Part shown: in pieces, positions 270-47,332 of the stretch
Numbering within the stretch: the stretch's first letter is position 1
How the letters are laid out: the number at the start of each line of letters is the position of its first letter
Source: a virus
Lineage: Duplodnaviria > Caudoviricetes
Direction: 5' to 3' (one strand)
DNA length: 52,138 bases
Virus record (IMG/VR): IMGVR_UViG_3300028840_005437
Span: 1-52,138 of that record
Notes under the pieces: generated by a model
Told to the model about the DNA's origin: nothing
Database searches by the model: none
What the model saw: the letters and a program-made list of their open reading frames with translations, nothing else
Program-made: the position numbers and the translations under genes

Positions 270-1589
270 TTACGCTCTCTCGAATCTCGTATATTTTTTA
301 TTGAAAATAAGAGGAACATCCCCTATGGGACCATTGCGGTTTTTATCCATGATAAACACCGCGTTATCATCGTCTTTGTTCTCCCTGTACAAAAAGCCGA
401 CCGTGTCCGCGTCGCTCTCGAACTGAGAGCACTCCTTCAAGTCCGACATGCGCGGCCTTCGGTTCTGCTTCAGCGCCTCTCTGTTTATGGGGCTGATTAT
501 CAGCGAATAAATATGGAGGTCTTTTATGAGAGCGCAAAGCCGTCCGCAAATATCGGTGAACTTCTCCCACCTTCTGCCTTTTCCTTCGGGGAGTTTTATT
601 TTCTGGACGTAATCCAAAATCAAAAGATCAAGCCCTTCTCCGTCTTCTGATTTCGCTTCGGACGCCGCCAAAGATTCTATCTCGCTCATGGTCATCGTGG
701 CCTGATCGCATATTCTGAAATTATCATAGGTGGCGAGCAGGTTGGCTCCGTCGCCGAGCCTATCCCAATCATCAGGATCAAGGCGTCCCGGTACGCGGAT
801 TCTGGTGGAGCTAACTCCCGTGTTTATCGGGAAAAGACGGTCTCTGACTATTGACCTGGCCGTTGTCTCGAGAGAGATCATCAGGATATTCAGGTCAGGG
901 GAGGCGCTGTTGGCGATGTTGGAGACAAGCGCCGTTTTCCCGGAGGACGGCGACCCCGCGATAATATTTGTTTTGCCCCTGAAAAGTCCGCCTCCGAACA
1001 CTTCGTCGAGCGAATCGATGCCCGTCGATAAAGCCGGACTAACTCCAGTCTCCAGGATTTTTTCAGTCTCATGAAAGACGACCGGAATGACCTCTGAAAC
1101 GCTCCAGATTCTGTTTTTTCTGACTCCTAGTCTGGACTGAACGCTCTGGAGTTTTTCTATTCCGTCGCTAACCGCGTCCGTCAGACCGACGTCGGAGTTT
1201 AAAAGTTCCGTTTTGAGCCGGTCCAGTTCCGCCAGCGTTTTCCTGGCCAGATAATGCTCTCTGAGAATTTTGGCGTAGTAGGCGGGGTTGCAGCTTCCGG
1301 GAGCCTGATTCTGAAGCTCGGCAAGATACGAATATCCGCCGGAGTCGTTCAGTTTCTTTTGGGATTTGAGCGCGTTTCCAAGCCCTATTTCGTCCCAGTC
1401 TCCATTTTCTCCGTCCCAATCCAGCATGGCGGCGTAGATGTTTCTGTGCGCCAAAGCCGTGAAGCATTCAAGGCTCTCGATAACGGACTTGACTATGGAG
1501 AAAGCGGAAGTGTTGGCTATGAGATAGCCGAGCAGCCCCTTTTCGCAGTCAAGGTCCTGGAAGTCGGCTTGCGTCATGCGACTAGCCAT
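270..1589 (-). CDS. dnaB: Replicative DnaB-like helicase
   Basis: Walker A AGSPSSGKT, LLILDYVQ, RPRMSDLKECSQFESDAD, KNRNGPIG; DnaB N-terminal domain. Confidence 0.95.
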   Translation of the reverse strand: MASRMTQADFQDLDCEKGLLGYLIANTSAFSIVKSVIESLECFTALAHRNIYAAMLDWDGENGDWDEIGLGNALKSQKKLNDSGGYSYLAELQNQAPGSCNPAYYAKILREHYLARKTLAELDRLKTELLNSDVGLTDAVSDGIEKLQSVQSRLGVRKNRIWSVSEVIPVVFHETEKILETGVSPALSTGIDSLDEVFGGGLFRGKTNIIAGSPSSGKTALVSNIANSASPDLNILMISLETTARSIVRDRLFPINTGVSSTRIRVPGRLDPDDWDRLGDGANLLATYDNFRICDQATMTMSEIESLAASEAKSEDGEGLDLLILDYVQKIKLPEGKGRRWEKFTDICGRLCALIKDLHIYSLIISPINREALKQNRRPRMSDLKECSQFESDADTVGFLYRENKDDDNAVFIMDKNRNGPIGDVPLIFNKKYTRFERA

Positions 1590-1959: not shown

Positions 1960-2386
1960 TTTGATTATCTCTTTTTATCCTTCGTTTACGTTCAAGATTG
2001 GCGCTTGTCTGAATCTCGCCAAGATCATCTTCAGGCAGAATTGCCGCTTTGCAATGGGGACAACACACCGCATTTTGGCGTTTCCCGCGCCAAGCTTTGT
2101 CCACCATGTTCAGGCTCCTTAAAAAACGCTTTTCCTTGACTTGCTCATTATGTCGCCTTTTAGCCTCCGTTATTTCATCCCATGCGTCCTTGTAAGCAGT
2201 CAGCATATTTTTCAAAGCCCAAAATCCTGAAACTTGAATTTCACAGTCAGAGCAGGTTATGTAACCTCCGTTTTCATGCAAAAGCAGTTTGCGATGTTCG
2301 CATATTTCATCTTTTTCCCTTGATCGCTTATTGATATGCTTAAATTCATAATCATGAATTGAGATTACATTGTTATTCATCGTCAT
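1949..2386 (-). CDS. Hypothetical zinc-binding phage protein
   Basis: CEH, CSDC and CPHC motifs; operon packing. Confidence 0.65.
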   Translation of the reverse strand: MTMNNNVISIHDYEFKHINKRSREKDEICEHRKLLLHENGGYITCSDCEIQVSGFWALKNMLTAYKDAWDEITEAKRRHNEQVKEKRFLRSLNMVDKAWRGKRQNAVCCPHCKAAILPEDDLGEIQTSANLERKRRIKRDNQNVE

Positions 2387-3353
2387 CCTCGTCCTTATAT
2401 CGTCCCCATACGACGATCATGTAGGTTTCCGGTCGTCTATGCAGAAAAGGAGCGTGTCTGCTGACCTTGCTGAAAACTCTCTTGTCTCGCTCCTTAAGCC
2501 ACTTCAAAAGGTCGTCCTGGTCTTTCGTCTCCGAGACTCCTTGTCTGATGAATTCGTAAAGCTCCTTTTGGGTCATACGGTTTTCGGGCGGCTTGTTTCG
2601 GGGAGCTTTGCCTTCGCCCGACTCCATCTTTATTTCCAAAGCGTCGAATTGCTTTCTTAACTTCGACATCGATAAAATGTTCACCTTCCAGAATTCGTCC
2701 GTCTGACACCACGCGATAACCTGCTTCACTTTCTCGATAGGACGCTGATCGATTCTTAGGATCGCGTCCGCGCTTCTGGCCCATAACTGAAGATTGGGCT
2801 TCTTGAAGTCTGGTTTGTTATTCCTGATATGATTCAGAAGAAAAAGAGACAATCGAAACTCGTTAGAGTTTTCGGGGAAGGTTTTTATTCTTTTTGATTC
2901 TTCTTTATTCTTATTGGATGGTTCCCGTTGCCTGTCCGTCCGCCTTACCGTTGCCTGTCCGTCCGCCTTACCGTTCGGGTTACTGTCTGCCTTACTATTC
3001 GCCTTACCGCTATCTTCGGGGTCAAGTTGATAAGTATTATAATTACATATAGTTATAAGTGTAGTTAGATTTCCTCTTTGCTGTGCTATCATGCCTTCCG
3101 TTTCTAGCAAATTCAGGAAACGCGAAACTTTGCCGCGAGACCAACCCCAACGATTTTTTAAGGTTTCCAAAGAATCGGCATTCTGACCCCGCTTGACATC
3201 TACCCGGATGGTCTTCTTATAGAAATGACCATCTTTATAATTAGCCCTGCCGATCAAATCAACCCAAGCCTGACCTTTTGTGAAAGGCTCCGAAGTCCAA
3301 AGCGGATGACTGAGGAGCTTTCTATTTATCTGAAAGTGATTTTTGACTGTCAA
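2373..3353 (-). CDS. Phage replication initiator (lambda O / DnaD-like)
   Basis: INRKLLSHPLW, AWVDLI, wHTH LKNRWGWSRGKVSRFL, ITICNYNTYQ, FWKVNILSMSKLRKQFD; lies upstream of dnaB; internal iteron-like repeats. Confidence 0.85.
   Translation of the reverse strand: MTVKNHFQINRKLLSHPLWTSEPFTKGQAWVDLIGRANYKDGHFYKKTIRVDVKRGQNADSLETLKNRWGWSRGKVSRFLNLLETEGMIAQQRGNLTTLITICNYNTYQLDPEDSGKANSKADSNPNGKADGQATVRRTDRQREPSNKNKEESKRIKTFPENSNEFRLSLFLLNHIRNNKPDFKKPNLQLWARSADAILRIDQRPIEKVKQVIAWCQTDEFWKVNILSMSKLRKQFDALEIKMESGEGKAPRNKPPENRMTQKELYEFIRQGVSETKDQDDLLKWLKERDKRVFSKVSRHAPFLHRRPETYMIVVWGRYKDEDDDE
2881..3010. promoter_or_regulatory. Putative replication origin (iterons plus AT-rich tract) inside the initiator gene
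   Basis: Two perfect 23-bp repeats CCGTTGCCTGTCCGTCCGCCTTA (2925-2970), further GCCTTAC copies, and an adjacent strand-asymmetric AT-rich tract at 2881-2915. Confidence 0.6.
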
Positions 3354-3501: not shown

Positions 3502-3578
3502 AAACTCCTTTTTGTTAAGTGTTTAATCTAATATATTTGTAATATAACAGGTATGTCAAGAAAAATATCAGGTCTTCC

Positions 3579-3746: not shown

Positions 3747-3799
3747 CTTCCCTCTTTGTTAGCGGAAAATTTTCATTTCCAGGAAAAATATCAGCTTGA

Positions 3800-3872
3800 C
3801 TCCCCAAGCAAGACTCGAACTTGCGACTTCATGGTTAACAGCCATGCGCTCTACCAACTGAACTATTGGGGA
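3800..3872 (-). tRNA. tRNA-Asn(GTT)
   Basis: TCCCCAATAGTTCAGTTGGTAGAGCGCATGGCTGTTAACCATGAAGTCGCAAGTTCGAGTCTTGCTTGGGGAG: canonical cloverleaf; followed by TCA, so CCA is not encoded. Confidence 0.95.
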
Positions 3873-3956
3873 TCAAAAAAAAATTACCGCGCAGCTCCGT
3901 GCAAAATCAAAAGCCGATCGTCCTTCGCTCGAAAAACTTTCTCGGAGATTTCATCA

Positions 3957-4050
3957 TCTTTCAGCCTTAACCTTTAACCGATTTAAACTTTCAGCTTTAA
4001 GCCCTGAATCTTTAGCCTTAAGCTTTGAATTTTAAGCTTTGCCGGTTTAA
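3957..4050 (-). repeat. Degenerate 7-nt tandem repeats (consensus ~TTAAAGC)
   Basis: ttaaaat tcaaagc ttaaggc taaagat tcagggc ttaaagc tgaaagt ttaaatc gg ttaaagg ttaaggc tgaaaga. Confidence 0.8.
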
Positions 4051-4071
4051 GGTCCAATGGACCATAATCAG

Positions 4072-4170
4072 TGCTTGATTTAGAGTCAAGTGCGTTTTCC
4101 ATTCCGCCACGTCTCCATACGGAAACGCCGGGATTCGAACCCGGAAACTGCTTGATTAAAATTCAAGTGC
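4072..4170 (-). tRNA. Circularly permuted tRNA-like element (3' half precedes 5' half); anticodon CTA, duplicate arm with TTT
   Basis: T-arm CCGGG-TTCGAAT-CCCGG, acceptor 3' strand CGTTTCC-G, linker TAT, then GGAGACG-TG-GCGGAATGGAAAACGC-A-CTTGA-CTCTAAA-TCAAG. Confidence 0.7.
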
Positions 4171-4229
4171 AGGGATACCCTCCCTGCGGGGAGACGAGTT
4201 CATGATTTTTCGCGCGGCAATTTTCAGTC

Positions 4230-4850
4230 CTAAACTTCTATGAACGTTATAGCGTTAGCCTCCGACAAAACGGAATCCACTTCGGAGTCGAACCTGTCGT
4301 TCTTTTCCTCCAATTCCTCAATGGTTTTCCTGAGATTCAAGGGATCGACTAATTTTAATTCATTGGCTTCAATATAAGGCTTCGTCACGTTTATAACGTC
4401 TTTGTCCGTCAGCTTCACGTTGTCTTTCGCTAATGCGGCTTCAGCTATCTGCAATGCCTGCTGAGCGACAGCCTTATTATGATTTTCAAGCCACGAGCTT
4501 ACTTCGGCGTAACGCTTTTTCAACGTTTTCAGAAAGGCGTTTCTTTGTTCGGTCATATGCTTTCTGTGAATGGCGTCCGCGATCGACATCTTCTCTCCAT
4601 TGATGTCGACGATGGTTTCAGTGTTGGCTTTCGCGATAGCGGACTTAATAGCCGTCCTCCTGTCAAACAAGTCATTCGCCTTTTGAAAATCGGCACAGGC
4701 CTTTTTAATGAAGTCGTTTTCCTCATGCCGGTTGTTGACGAGTTTTTTAATCTGCTTCCAGCCTATCGGCTCGATATTCACGTTAAGCTTGGCCATCTTT
4801 TTATCTATAAGCCTCAATTCTCCCAATGCTCTATGCAATGTCATCTCCAT
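4230..4850 (-). CDS. DIP1984/septicolysin-like long helical-hairpin protein
   Basis: MTLHRALGELRLIDKK..IKSAIAKANTETIVDINGEKMSIADAI..LVDPL..EVDSVLSEANAITFIEV, recognised as this family's pattern. Confidence 0.7.
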   Translation of the reverse strand: MEMTLHRALGELRLIDKKMAKLNVNIEPIGWKQIKKLVNNRHEENDFIKKACADFQKANDLFDRRTAIKSAIAKANTETIVDINGEKMSIADAIHRKHMTEQRNAFLKTLKKRYAEVSSWLENHNKAVAQQALQIAEAALAKDNVKLTDKDVINVTKPYIEANELKLVDPLNLRKTIEELEEKNDRFDSEVDSVLSEANAITFIEV

Positions 4851-4865
4851 ATTCTCTCCTTAATT

Positions 4866-5036
4866 TTAATCTTTCAAATATTTCCCGACGGCCTTCCTTA
4901 ACTCGTCGCTGATGGCCGCGTAGCCGTTAAGCTGTAGCGCTACGGCATTGTAAGTAAGAGACGGAATATAGGTTTCATGAAACCACCTTAAGCTCCGCCC
5001 CTCTGATTTTAATTTTTCTTGAAGTTGCGCTTTCAT
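4866..5036 (-). CDS. Small Cro-like HTH protein
   Basis: MKAQLQEKLKSEGRSLRWF..YNAVALQLNGY; ATG at 5036 with AGGA RBS, just downstream of a TTGACA promoter. Confidence 0.55.
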   Translation of the reverse strand: MKAQLQEKLKSEGRSLRWFHETYIPSLTYNAVALQLNGYAAISDELRKAVGKYLKD

Positions 5037-5042
5037 GTCCTT

Positions 5043-5084
5043 ATAATAAAAACTTTTTATTAGCACTGTCAAGAAAAATATCAG
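5043..5084 (-). promoter_or_regulatory. Sigma70-like promoter preceded by a CTGATATTTTTC motif
   Basis: CTGATATTTTTC-TTGACA-18 nt-TATTAT; same arrangement at 3530-3571. Confidence 0.55.
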
Positions 5085-5090
5085 CTCTTT

Positions 5091-5234
5091 CTAGTGCGTC
5101 AAAACATATGACAAAATCAATAAGCACATAAGAAAGCTACGCTCTACAGCCGCGTCCCAATCTCTGCCGGCAAAAAAAGCGTATATAAAATTTCCCAGGC
5201 ATATTCCTAAGCAAAAATCCCAAGGTATTTCCAT
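5091..5234 (-). CDS. Small membrane protein, 47 aa
   Basis: Manual translation MEIPWDFCLGICLGNFIYAFF...; AGGAGG RBS. Confidence 0.45.
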   Translation of the reverse strand: MEIPWDFCLGICLGNFIYAFFAGRDWDAAVERSFLMCLLILSYVLTH

Positions 5235-5273
5235 CTCTCCTCCTTTTCGGCGCTTCAATTATGGTTTTATCGT

Positions 5274-5480
5274 TCATTCATCATCCTCTTCAATCATTAA
5301 AGGTGTTGGCGGCAATGCCCTTATTTCCGCTTGAGGGTTATCATCATAATCCGATAATCTTCGCAAAGATTCCTCTATGACGTATTTATTATGAGAAGTT
5401 ATAGGCATTCCTCCTCCAGTCAACATTATCCTCCCTGTTTCTCTGGAAACCAATGCGTAGCAAGGCAATAAAAATTTCAT
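5274..5480 (-). CDS. Hypothetical protein
   Basis: ORF with strong AGGAGG RBS. Confidence 0.55.
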   Translation of the reverse strand: MKFLLPCYALVSRETGRIMLTGGGMPITSHNKYVIEESLRRLSDYDDNPQAEIRALPPTPLMIEEDDE

Positions 5481-5745: not shown

Positions 5746-5777
5746 TGTACTCCTTTTCAGGGCGGTTAAGAAAAATA

Positions 5778-5987
5778 TCAGTCCATTTGCTTCTTATACC
5801 TCTTGATCGCCTCAATGAGGTTATTACCCGGACACTGGGATATGATGGGAAATTCTTCTCCAAGCTCACCGAACATAAAATCATTAACTTTTTGAAAAGC
5901 GGCAAACCATTCATGCCCCGCTTTCACGTCTTCCGTGATCCGTTTGAATTTTTTTCTAGTGATTGATACAAGCTTTTTCTTCTTCAT
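5778..5987 (-). CDS. Hypothetical protein
   Basis: ORF in leftward small-gene run. Confidence 0.5.
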   Translation of the reverse strand: MKKKKLVSITRKKFKRITEDVKAGHEWFAAFQKVNDFMFGELGEEFPIISQCPGNNLIEAIKRYKKQMD

Positions 5988-7513: not shown

Positions 7514-7694
7514 GGTTTCTCCTCTTGTTAATATCGTTTTGCTGACCTCGAAAAACGATCATAGATAATCCTCGAAACTCTGTTGAATATCCGGATCCTT
7601 CTGAAGCTTCTCCCCAAGCACTCGCAAAGCCTTTTCCGCAGCATAGCGAGACGCAAGTGATTTCGGGATTATCCACATTATAAATAGTCTTCAA
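7506..7694 (-). CDS. Hypothetical protein
   Basis: Overlaps neighbours in operon fashion. Confidence 0.45.
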   Translation of the reverse strand: MKTIYNVDNPEITCVSLCCGKGFASAWGEASEGSGYSTEFRGLSMIVFRGQQNDINKRRNHA

Positions 7695-8748
7695 AGGTTT
7701 TCTGACTGGCAGCCGCCTCGATGCGTTTGGCGGCTATCTCGCAATACTTTTTTTCCTTTTCGCAAAGAATCCAACGGCGATTTAAATGCTCGCATGCCAT
7801 AGCCATAGTGCCTGAACCTCCGAAGAAATCCATGCAAAGGTCGCCGGGATTGCTGGAATGCTTCAGGATATTCTCGATCAATCTTACAGGTTTTGGCGTT
7901 AAATGTCCGATTTGAGGCGCGGCTGAATAGTTCCAGACGCTATTATTCCAGTCCTGCAAGTGAAAACAAAAGTCACCGGTGACGGGTTGATTATTGAAGG
8001 TATATCTCAAGTCCTCGTATTCCTTCCTCAAGTCCTCGTATTCCTTCCTCAAGTACTCGTATTCCTTCCTCAAGTCCTCGTATTCCTTCCTCAAGTACTC
8101 GTTATTTAAGAATGCTCTAACTTTCAGATATTGATCTTTAGTGATTATGTTGTCACCATTCAGCCAATTAGAAACGCATCCAGTTAATCCACCCGTTTTA
8201 CTTGGAAATAAAGCCGCTATTTCTTTATTAGTAACACCCGCTTTTTTAAACTCATCCCGTAGGTACTGAGCGAATTTATTTTTTGGTTTAATATGTTCAT
8301 CTTTAATTGCCTCAAGCCCCGTCTCATCCTGAAAGGTATAGAAAAGGCAATATTCCGCCATTGTTTCATAATTGCGCGAACCATCAATAGCAAGATGTCG
8401 CATATAAAAGCCTCTATTTTTAGTTTCCTTAAAGTACTTATTCCAGACAATGAACTTTTTAAACACAAACTCCGTATTTTCTTCAATCCATCTCATCAAC
8501 CGAGCTATCACCGGCATTTTATTATGAAACCAGTAGAATGAACCGTTGTCTTTAAGCATCCTCTGACAGAGCTTGAAGACTGCTCCCATCCACTCTTGAT
8601 AATTATCGATCTTATCCCAGGTATCCTTCTTAATATTGTACGGCGGATCAATGCAAATCAAAGAAGCTTGTTCTTTGAGATACGGACCGATTTCCAAGCA
8701 ATCGCCGTGATAAAGTTTACCTCTCTCAGTCTCAAAATAAGGATTCAT
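7678..8748 (-). CDS. Beta-class N6-adenine/N4-cytosine DNA methyltransferase with an HTH and heptad-repeat insertion
   Basis: LYHGDCL, IDPPYN, HLTPKP, DFFGGSGT; probable start MNPYFETERG at 8748. Confidence 0.9.
   Translation of the reverse strand: MNPYFETERGKLYHGDCLEIGPYLKEQASLICIDPPYNIKKDTWDKIDNYQEWMGAVFKLCQRMLKDNGSFYWFHNKMPVIARLMRWIEENTEFVFKKFIVWNKYFKETKNRGFYMRHLAIDGSRNYETMAEYCLFYTFQDETGLEAIKDEHIKPKNKFAQYLRDEFKKAGVTNKEIAALFPSKTGGLTGCVSNWLNGDNIITKDQYLKVRAFLNNEYLRKEYEDLRKEYEYLRKEYEDLRKEYEDLRYTFNNQPVTGDFCFHLQDWNNSVWNYSAAPQIGHLTPKPVRLIENILKHSSNPGDLCMDFFGGSGTMAMACEHLNRRWILCEKEKKYCEIAAKRIEAAASQKTFEDYL
8004..8100 (-). repeat. 21-bp tandem repeat (~4.5 copies) encoding YEDLRKE heptads
   Basis: ctcaagtcctcgtattccttc repeated; protein EYLRKEYEDLRKEYEYLRKEYEDLRKEYEDLR. 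Confidence 0.9.
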
Positions 8749-9062
8749 CCTACTTCCTCGCTCCGCAATCTTCGCACATCGAAACCTCATGACAATCGCA
8801 ATATCGTTCGCCCGGATGGCAATATCCGCCTGTTCCGCCGCGCACGCAGACCTTTTTTTTGACGTAGTTATGAGAATATCTCCTGCCGCCGCAGATCGGA
8901 GGCTGCCCGGGTGGTCTGAAAATCGGCCGCGAACGCCCAGCAGGATTCTGGATTGGCTTCGATGCGCCTTAATCAGTATTTCGGGAATTTTTATTCGCCG
9001 CGAATTGAATCCTTCGGCATCGCCGAATATCAGCGCCGCGAAGACAAAAGCGAATATCTTTT

Positions 9063-9224
9063 TCACTGAACGCTCTCCGAATAATCTCGCCCTTTATCGG
9101 TGAGTTCCCATCCGTCACCCCTGAAATACTGAATCAATCCGGCATTCCACGCGCTTCTGAGATCATTATAGAAGTCTTCGGCGAAGCCTTTCACTTGCTC
9201 GCCGCTTTTTATTTTCCGCAACAT
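9063..9224 (-). CDS. Small hypothetical protein, 53 aa (winged-helix-like end)
   Basis: Manual translation MLRKIKSG...GLIQYFRGDGWELTDKGRDY. Confidence 0.5.
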   Translation of the reverse strand: MLRKIKSGEQVKGFAEDFYNDLRSAWNAGLIQYFRGDGWELTDKGRDYSESVQ

Positions 9225-47071: not shown

Positions 47072-47121
47072 TAAAAAAAGCCCGCTATTCTGCGGCAACA
47101 GAGAAGCGGGCTATTAAAAAA
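47072..47121. terminator. Probable intrinsic terminator (U-tract on minus strand)
   Basis: AAAAAAA-GCCCGCT...AGCGGGC-TATTAAAAAA. Confidence 0.5.
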
Positions 47122-47332
47122 CGATATTTTCAATCATATATCATGAATAACAATAGCATTTCGGAGTGGGAAATTTACGACGAATTTATGGCATTTGGTT
47201 TTTTCTTCACTTCTTCACCTTTTTTACAGTCAAACGCTAAAAAAACTTTAGTGAATCTCAAGATAATTTATCTTTTCTCGCACTCGCTTGATTTCGTTAA
47301 ACATCTTTTTTAATAATAATTACATTTTATGC

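Follow-up and report, generated by a model that had tools for sequence, protein, structure and literature searches.

What does a phage gain from a stretch of several hundred non-coding bases placed immediately behind a gene? The question is raised by the virus record IMGVR_UViG_3300028840_005437 of the IMG/VR database, in which a gene for a protein of 206 amino acids (aa) is followed by such a stretch; the window analysed here is this whole record of 52,138 bases (estimated completeness 89%), and the genes of interest in the cassette all lie on its minus strand. An initial annotation, made from the letters of the window alone, took the stretch for a structured RNA with a tract of heptamer repeats and suggested that it works together with the product of the adjacent gene. 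We find that the RNA belongs to a family of non-coding RNAs, 230-490 nucleotides (nt) long, that is widespread in phages and has a pseudoknotted core made up of the helices P1, P2, P3, P4, Pe, P6 and P7. That this family and its linkage to the gene are real we regard as virtually certain; the function of the pair is a matter of more tentative argument.

The linkage was examined with an alignment-based scan of IMG/VR, which gave 148 stretches with a gene for a related protein; the 80 best of these were kept as loci. With a single protein sequence as the query, none of 15 candidate stretches from IMG/VR was confirmed. At 72 of the 80 loci a closing helix (P1) of 9-21 base pairs (bp) starts 3-49 nt past the stop codon of the gene and encloses 230-490 nt. 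The sequences of this helix vary freely among loci, and its borders follow a pattern, ...YG then AAA on the 5' side and GGC then UG on the 3' side; L024 and L034 have 13-bp closing helices with variant borders, and in L022, L023, L025 and L065 the RNA was recovered by R1, a covariance model of its 3' domain that is described below. Two loci (L021 and L048) have no downstream sequence, leaving 78 testable ones, and at 76 of these the RNA lies directly downstream of the gene. Homologues of the protein thus do clearly carry the downstream stem and repeats, and the conserved gene-RNA pair that the initial annotation had supposed is well supported.

The same arrangement occurs in cultured phages. 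In all five that were examined the RNA follows the gene (R1 scores of 34.5-58.4 bits, plus a P1 helix): the T5-like AKFV33, Bacillus phage BC-T25 (Herelleviridae), Vibrio phage Chester, Proteus phage Mydo and Pseudomonas phage psageK4. Their RNAs are 291-357 nt long, with a P1 of 9-21 bp in every case. The public records of the cultured phages show the region as empty or as tiny open reading frames (ORFs). In AKFV33 the RNA sits in a 383-nt unannotated gap past orf083. An annotated 44-aa gp259 in Mydo (L204, 2300-2434) and the antisense 110c in psageK4 (L202, 2343-2516) both lie inside the RNA, and probably neither is a gene. A DNA search with the window RNA against 50,697 phage records gave no match.

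A scan of IMG/VR with a 17-base motif of the 3' end returned 118 stretches, 103 of which fail a crude test for the 3' signature; the protein gene lies upstream in ten of the 15 that pass. As for the other five, two resemble chance matches (L131 and L173), one holds only the last codons of the gene (L171), one is cut at the start of the locus (L194) and one (L133), to which we return, is geneless.

Is this element an RNA at all, or could it act as DNA, with P1 as the terminal inverted repeat of a miniature transposon, replication origin or set of iterons? Terminal inverted repeats of 9-21 bp, short AT-rich repeats and, in the window, nearby replication genes would all be in keeping with such an element. 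The evidence comes from a MAFFT alignment of 14 loci, the window excluded, with a hand-built structure (A5). Of the 738 cells of A5, 90.0% are paired, whereas shuffles reach 70.8% and slid partners 36-45%; the score for covariation is 0.472 (0.162 in shuffles), 41 of the 60 pairs have changes on both sides, and not one of 500 shuffles attains any of the five measures. The helices supported in this way are P1, P2, P3, P4, Pe, P6 and the four stems of a tRNA-like module. Across the family, P2 joins the A-run after P1 to NNNUUUU, and P3, which crosses P2, joins AAAUCC-NNN to NNN-GG just before CUG; P3 takes 14 distinct sequences over 56 loci. Moreover, P1 is closed by a G.U pair that is invariant (14/14 loci), and the structure has many further wobble pairs. 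Since G.U pairs become A.C mismatches on the other strand, the conserved entity is an RNA on the strand of the gene and not a DNA inverted repeat. The inverted repeats differ among loci yet stay complementary, the internal helices covary likewise, and the element keeps a fixed place with respect to the stop codon; the covariation analysis largely refutes a DNA-level element, to which we would give next to no probability.

The 14 loci, to which the window does not belong, were the source of the R1 model (162 positions), which matches the window at 3884-4030(-), scoring 76.3 bits (E 1.7e-13), as well as 33 of 40 further sources. A second match in the window (47099-47226, 20.5 bits, E 0.026) was taken as chance. 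An alignment of the 32 non-seed matches (A7), biased towards the structure of the model because it was fitted to it, has 88.4% of its cells paired (68.8% in shuffles); for P3 the figure is 99.4%, with four of its five pairs compensatory, and P7 now has compensatory changes too.

In the window itself, the 360 nt folded as RNA reach -113.6 kcal/mol (z -3.05), and none of 100 shuffles is as good. Most of the pairings first proposed have held up. The closing stem, 4212-4224 with 3880-3892, comprises 13 bp including one G.U, and an unconstrained helix search lengthens it to 15 bp (4211-4225 with 3879-3893); the U-run reported behind it is there as well, overlapping and trailing the 3' strand of P1. 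Both predicted hairpins, GCAGGGA/UCCCUGC (4169-4187) and GGUCCA/UGGACC (4051-4063), were confirmed, and the long-range pairing of CUCCG with CGGAG proved to be the family-wide pseudoknot helix P3. Two other long-range pairings were not confirmed: UCGUC with GACGA, and CGAAAAA with UUUUUCG, the A-run after CG pairing in the family with UGAUUUU to form P2. It is possible that the GGG of the Pe loop and the upstream CCC form a second pseudoknot (Pd). Both strands of P7 (two copies of AAAGUUCUU) are missing together from the window RNA, and their joint loss is the behaviour expected of a true helix. The features of the cassette are listed in Table 1.

Table 1. Positions of the cassette and of the parts of its RNA within the window, in the order of the gene strand.
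Feature	Positions	Strand	Remarks
Repeated motif CTGATATTTTTC			directly 5' of the promoter-like site at 5072 on the gene strand
Promoter-like site TTGACA-18-TATTAT	5043..5072	-	11/12 matches
Small upstream ORF	4866..5072	-	68 aa as listed; family: none found
Gene for the 206-aa protein	4230..4850	-	phrog_1491 (T5.085 family); TAG stop
Structured non-coding RNA	3879..4225	-	347 nt, P1 first to last base
P1, 5' strand	4211..4225	-	ends ...CG right before the A-run
P2, 5' strand AAAAUCA	4203..4209	-	
CCCC, then hairpin Pe	4169..4191	-	GCAGGGA/UCCCUGC
Hairpin P6	4151..4167	-	5-bp stem; 7-nt anticodon-loop-like loop AUUUUAA
Circularly permuted tRNA-like module	4074..4150	-	
Module: variable region and T arm	4128..4150	-	
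Module: acceptor 3' strand, GUAU loop, acceptor 5' strand	4110..4127	-	7 bp
Module: D arm	4092..4107	-	
Module: anticodon arm	4074..4090	-	CUA
Extra hairpin GGUCC-AUU-GGACC	4051..4063	-	outside the family core; similar one in L019
Heptamer tract	3948..4042	-	~12 heptamers, conserved AAAG/AAGG plus three variable bases
P3, 5' strand CUCCG	3943..3947	-	
Hairpin P4	3911..3930	-	
P2, 3' strand UGAUUUU	3903..3909	-	P2 x P3 crossing = pseudoknot
P3, 3' strand CGGAG	3895..3899	-	
P1, 3' strand	3879..3893	-	family motif G-C then UG before
Run of nine U	3875..3883	-	possible terminator tail
tRNA-Asn(GUU)	3800..3872	-	co-oriented; starts 6 nt past the RNA end

The 7-nt periodicity ascribed to the heptamer tract is borne out: the identity at lags of 7, 14 and 21 nt is 0.47, 0.45 and 0.45, against ~0.12-0.35 at other lags, and 0 of 5000 shuffles have a lag-7 identity as high. 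Tandem Repeats Finder reports a period of 7 (7.1 copies, 63% matches) and a period of 21 (2.2 copies). No conserved pairing partner was found for most of the units. Heptamers with AAAG, spaced by 7, 14 or 21 nt, recur across all the clades examined except that of L026. The further suggestion that each repeat binds one subunit of an oligomeric protein is not supported. It is disfavoured because the L026/L024 clade, in which the array is nearly gone, keeps the conserved motifs of the protein; the protein family is, moreover, near neutral (median isoelectric point 6.35, net charge ~-1), and only a dimer has been modelled.

A protein gene that adjoins an RNA with short tandem repeats also brings to mind the type III toxin-antitoxin systems, in which a repeat RNA neutralises a toxic protein, and a pair of this kind was among the original suggestions. 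In ToxIN, the toxin gene is preceded by the RNA repeats, which are processed to units of ~36 nt. Here the RNA is downstream of the gene, the reverse order, and its repeats are 7 nt long and placed inside a large fold; the pair, furthermore, sits in the early and tRNA regions of lytic phages. The PADLOC matches are weak and at the level of chance (PtuB, E 3.6e-4, 18 bits; PDC-M64C, 16 bits). With nothing found in its support, a toxin-antitoxin pair seems to us most improbable.

Between P6 and the heptamers the family has a variable slot, which in the window is filled by the permuted tRNA-like module. This module and the tRNA-Asn had both been missed in the initial annotation. At a permissive threshold Rfam gives a partial tRNA match without the D arm (4184 to 4120, 29.2 bits; threshold 29) and another with the D and anticodon arms only (4107 to 4074, 21.7 bits), and ARAGORN calls no tRNA in the native order (3873-4232). 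Once the halves have been swapped back by script, ARAGORN calls a canonical cloverleaf of 74 nt with the anticodon CUA. The bases past the discriminator base in the window are UAU, not CCA. Most close relatives likewise have a permuted module in the slot; L003 and the L041 clade have a normal tRNA there, and in L013, L014, L018 and L023 the slot is empty. Because it can be absent or replaced by a normal tRNA, the module is not the core function of the RNA.

Several observations on the modules of relatives belong here. In L008, L012 and L015, GCCA or ACCA comes directly after the acceptor 3' strand and looks like an encoded 3' CCA end, and after this NCCA there is a small GAAA-capped hairpin or an A-rich loop; the closed acceptor of L008 has a G3.U70-type pair. 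Just upstream of the protein gene of L009 (2444-2948), ARAGORN makes a permuted transfer-messenger RNA (tmRNA) call that overlaps a tRNA-Met call, and this may either be false or mark another permuted tRNA-like element.

Could the permuted module nonetheless be the functional part, its acceptor loop being cleaved to give a two-piece, chargeable amber tRNA or a tmRNA-like molecule? The route would be cutting by RNase P, trimming of the 3' end and addition of CCA, with the heptamer tract serving as the message in the tmRNA-like case. The canonical cloverleaf of the un-permuted module, with its CUA anticodon and 7-bp acceptor, and the NCCA of the three relatives just mentioned point in this direction, and there is a precedent: in Mycobacterium smegmatis, RNase P cuts the YrlA RNA, whose closed acceptor has 7 bp, and CCA is added to it. 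The relatives with an empty slot or a normal tRNA speak against this idea, however, as do the UAU of the window and the absence of a tmRNA call there by either ARAGORN or the Rfam models. In addition, each reading frame through the 7-nt repeat runs into UAA after no more than a few codons, and a recoding of TAG is not indicated, 21 of the 110 ORFs of at least 100 aa ending in this codon. We consider the two-piece molecule very unlikely, and the readings as an amber-suppressor source and as TAG recoding were dropped on the same count of TAG stops.

Ordinary tRNAs also surround the family. They are present in 48 of the 80 loci, and for the 56 distinct RNAs a tRNA is called inside in 14 and within 300 nt downstream in 23. 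Of these tRNAs, 176/177 are co-oriented with the gene, and the gene-RNA pair usually lies within a co-oriented tRNA array. One tRNA-rich phage contig (L036) also has a drum RNA (RF02958, 74 bits) at 123-233, about 2.8 kb upstream of the protein gene.

The partner gene belongs to a large family. The 206-aa protein matches phrog_1491 with E 1.2e-46 (residues 2-206 on profile positions 4-209 of 211), and AKFV33 orf083, noted as similar to T5.085, is another member. A profile of nine homologues retrieves 3330 cluster representatives at E <= 0.001 and 1108 at E <= 1e-30; by tblastn the protein is present in 668 of 50,697 deposited phage genomes, mainly those of T5-like Salmonella and Escherichia phages and also of Pseudomonas, Vibrio, Bacillus and Klebsiella phages. 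The label "tail fiber", frequent in this family, is not backed by the proteomics of AKFV33, which identified ORF137 as the tail fibre. An AlphaFold model of the protein (predicted local distance difference test, pLDDT, 95.5) is all-helical with small terminal strands. Structure modelling also supports a homodimer, which scores 0.59 against 0.02 for the best of three controls; the mark used is reached by 20 of 30 proteins solved as one-chain pairs and by one of 23 solved as single chains, and the runs have at least 89% of contacts in common, with a partner pLDDT of at least 87. Basic residues conserved in the family are R7, R13, K18, R64, R65, K69 and K97.

The initial annotation had described this protein as DIP1984-like. 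Support for this is weak, if consistent, in that the top match by three methods is the solved structure 3kdq, which we take to be DIP1984: the profile E is 0.012, Foldseek gives E 0.043 with a probability of 0.99, and VIA-align gives Z 10.6 over 151 aligned residues with a root-mean-square deviation (rmsd) of 7.0, this Z being within the chance range of helical bundles. On the other hand, the window protein matches no Pfam and no NCBIfam model, and PF20935 (DUF6847) matches seven of 59 family members (best E 1.8e-4) without the window protein being one of them. The likeness to 3kdq is remote and uninformative. Structure searches with the window protein returned uncharacterised phage proteins only in BFVD and hypothetical proteins only in the ESM Atlas.

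How is the RNA likely to be made? The promoter claimed upstream does exist as a promoter-like site (5072 to 5043), and after it come the small ORF, the 206-aa gene, the RNA and the tRNA-Asn, in that order. The accompanying label "Cro-like" for the small ORF has not survived, Pfam and PHROG searches with its 68 aa being without any family match; an internal ATG ~36 nt downstream is its likelier start, because the listed TTG start overlaps the -35 hexamer. On the gene strand, no promoter-like site with more than 9/12 matches was found within the RNA or just upstream of it. Together with the start of the RNA only 4 nt past the TAG, and with the U-run after P1 in the window and several relatives, this would suit a cis-acting 3' untranslated region, be it a terminator or stabiliser of elaborate build or a site at which the protein binds to regulate its own mRNA. 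A terminator or stabiliser, however, needs far less than two pseudoknots, some ten conserved helices and a slot for a tRNA, and the co-oriented tRNAs 6-40 nt downstream in many loci imply that transcription often continues past the RNA. A purely cis-acting role is, in our estimation, quite unlikely.

The interpretation that we favour, though tentatively and with somewhat less than even confidence, is a candidate RNA-protein particle that would act in the sphere of the phage's tRNAs and translation. Gene, RNA and tRNA-Asn would be co-transcribed from the promoter-like site near 5072, and P1 and the U-run would stabilise the RNA such that a discrete species accumulates. This RNA and the dimeric protein could then act jointly as a ribonucleoprotein on the host's tRNA or translation machinery, for example by offering the AAAG array and the mimic of a tRNA to host enzymes that bind tRNAs or to defences that target them. 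The protein would probably recognise the universally conserved core of the RNA instead of one heptamer per subunit. A bolder version, which we think unlikely, is that of a phage ribonucleoprotein class, composed of an ornate pseudoknotted RNA and a dedicated dimeric protein that are both made along with the tRNA operon of the phage; its tRNA mimic and dozen evenly spaced AAAG units, resembling lysine codons, would capture or divert host tRNA-acting factors and so protect phage translation. The factors in question might be nucleases of anti-phage defence that cut anticodons, enzymes that modify tRNAs, or tRNA-Lys itself.

Several points weigh against such a particle. Adjacent genes often encode products that do not interact. 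The near-neutral charge of the family is unlike that of RNA-coating proteins, and the L026/L024 clade manages almost without the array. GOLLD and ROOL, large phage RNAs to which the present family is compared below, are thought to act without protein partners, according to the available parts of the publications on them. Finally, the best-scoring 3' domain of all (172 bits; L133, minus strand 5124-5285) has no protein homologue within 14.5 kb, and no 5' partner for its P1 either. Two permuted tRNA-like modules precede this domain. L133 may be a rearranged copy or, alternatively, one that works without the protein.

These points lead to the rival that we take most seriously, namely that the RNA acts on its own in the manner of GOLLD and ROOL, self-folding and perhaps self-assembling, and that the gene merely shares its transcript or pathway. 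Besides the geneless L133 and the near-neutral protein, this possibility draws on a genomic context that is the same as the available accounts give for GOLLD and ROOL (occurrence in phages, tRNA islands and a variable linker that holds tRNAs), and the A-rich unpaired tracts and short palindromes (AAGCUU) could conceivably serve RNA-RNA contacts. It fits less well with the near-invariant adjacency of gene and RNA (3-49 nt), which is kept where the proteins are only 30-46% identical and which spans phage families of Gram-positive and Gram-negative hosts, nor is there an Rfam match to GOLLD or ROOL. An RNA that needs no protein is a serious rival, but on balance a doubtful one.

Whichever of these functions applies, the pair has some practical merits. 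Its protein family is abundant, as the numbers of cluster representatives and phage genomes attest, and its occurrence in T5-like coliphages makes the role of the gene-RNA pair open to bench study. The embedded permuted modules illustrate how phages recycle tRNA folds. At the very least, the annotation of these genomes is corrected with respect to the "tail fiber" label and the spurious small ORFs inside the RNA.

The surroundings of the cassette deserve brief mention. On the plus strand the motif GAAAAATATCAG, which reads CTGATATTTTTC on the gene strand, has exact copies at 3560-3571, 3783-3794, 5073-5084 and 5770-5781, that is four exact copies against 0.63 expected with at most one mismatch. 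It stands directly 5' of TTGACA at both of the best promoter-like sites (5072 and 3559), and a further copy is directly 3' of the tRNA-Asn; in this phage the motif probably accompanies promoters or marks the boundaries of transcription units. Downstream of the cassette are a DnaD-like loader or replication initiator (2373-3353(-); phrog_2514, E 3.4e-54) and a 439-aa ORF (270-1589(-)) that is helicase-like by eye, no family search having been run; because of these two, the cassette can be placed in the early, replication region of the phage. Positions 1-304 hold tandem repeats, with a minus-strand frame resembling pentapeptide repeats (ADLxGADLxG...) that runs off the end of the contig. A 462-aa ORF (7678-9066(-)) contains a run of LRKEYEDLRKEYE-type repeats at ~7960-8110, and there are matching repeat ORFs on the opposite strand.

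How does this family compare with systems that are already known? Rfam 15 finds nothing in the window beyond tRNA. In two relatives, L060 (94.7 bits) and L067 (88 bits; threshold 76.1), the 86-nt RAGATH-27 model (RF03100) covers the first ~85 nt of the RNA, a stretch that includes the 5' strand of P1, CGAAAAC and the first hairpin. The RAGATH set is made up of RNAs located in the vicinity of genes that are associated with twister and hammerhead ribozymes; a 2017 paper that was checked does not use the word. In the RAGATH-27 model the P1 and P2 strands are unpaired, and the model does not extend to the tRNA slot, the heptamers or the 3' pseudoknot domain; there is no match to it in the other 18 of the 20 loci scanned, and none in the window at either the gathering score of 76.1 or E <= 10. 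A fragment of one subclade has thus already been catalogued as RAGATH-27, and the link between it and the window RNA rests on shared architecture, not on that model. In the literature searched, neither the name RAGATH-27 nor any description of the full RNA or its gene link was found, although supplementary catalogues may list pieces; the main text of the CRISPRi-ART paper does not name T5.085, and a 2026 preprint on tRNA mimics, in the part available, concerns other families.

The permuted module invites comparison with two kinds of RNA. The tRNA-like domain of YrlA is arranged as T arm, closed acceptor-like stem and D arm, and the window module has the same order; YrlA resembles the window RNA also in that its 5' and 3' ends pair and in being found in phages. 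The module is optional here, however, and the RNA is two to three times the size of YrlA. A Y RNA with an Rsr partner was dropped as a candidate: no match to TROVE/Rsr (PF05731) was seen in the 52-kb record at E <= 1, with positive controls and a record that is ~89% complete, and none of the 57 distinct RNAs, among them that of the window, has the 5' motif of YrlA (GNCGAAN0-1G). Two-piece tmRNA is also permuted, its T arm and acceptor 3' strand coming before the acceptor 5' strand, and has SmpB as its partner. The permuted order, the pseudoknots and possibly a small dedicated protein are shared with the window RNA, which differs in having full D and anticodon arms, no conserved tag frame and no CCA; the partner protein, modelled as an all-helical dimer, is not SmpB-like. 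A tmRNA-like identity was among the readings dropped.

For the heptamers, the closest parallel is offered by TRAP and HutP, ring-shaped proteins that attach to evenly spaced NAG triplets, the HutP sites being NAG plus a 4-nt spacer and hence of period 7. The tract here is similarly single-stranded, with a conserved purine triplet at fixed spacing, but the TRAP and HutP folds are unrelated to the partner protein, and one clade is without the tract. That protein, in turn, shares with 3kdq (an uncharacterised protein of Corynebacterium diphtheriae) a helical make-up, at 12-16% identity, 153 versus 206 residues and the rmsd of 7.0 Å given above, and no function is transferable from it.

It is GOLLD and ROOL that come closest in context. 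To our knowledge, GOLLD has no known protein partner. The accessible portions of the published work describe both RNAs as phage-encoded and often near tRNA islands, with a variable linker that contains tRNAs and with multiple pseudoknots, and report no protein partner identified for ROOL. To judge from these portions, the present family is like them in its phage hosts, tRNA islands, tRNA-bearing linker and pseudoknots. Their Rfam models have no match in the window or in 20 related loci, and the architecture is another one: GOLLD and ROOL measure ~580-800+ nt against the 230-490 nt found here, and they are without the AAAG heptamer array and the near-obligatory upstream protein gene. Large, elaborate RNAs of this sort are rare in bacteria and phages and each new class has opened new biology; unlike GOLLD and ROOL, this one comes with a candidate protein partner that provides a direct experimental handle.

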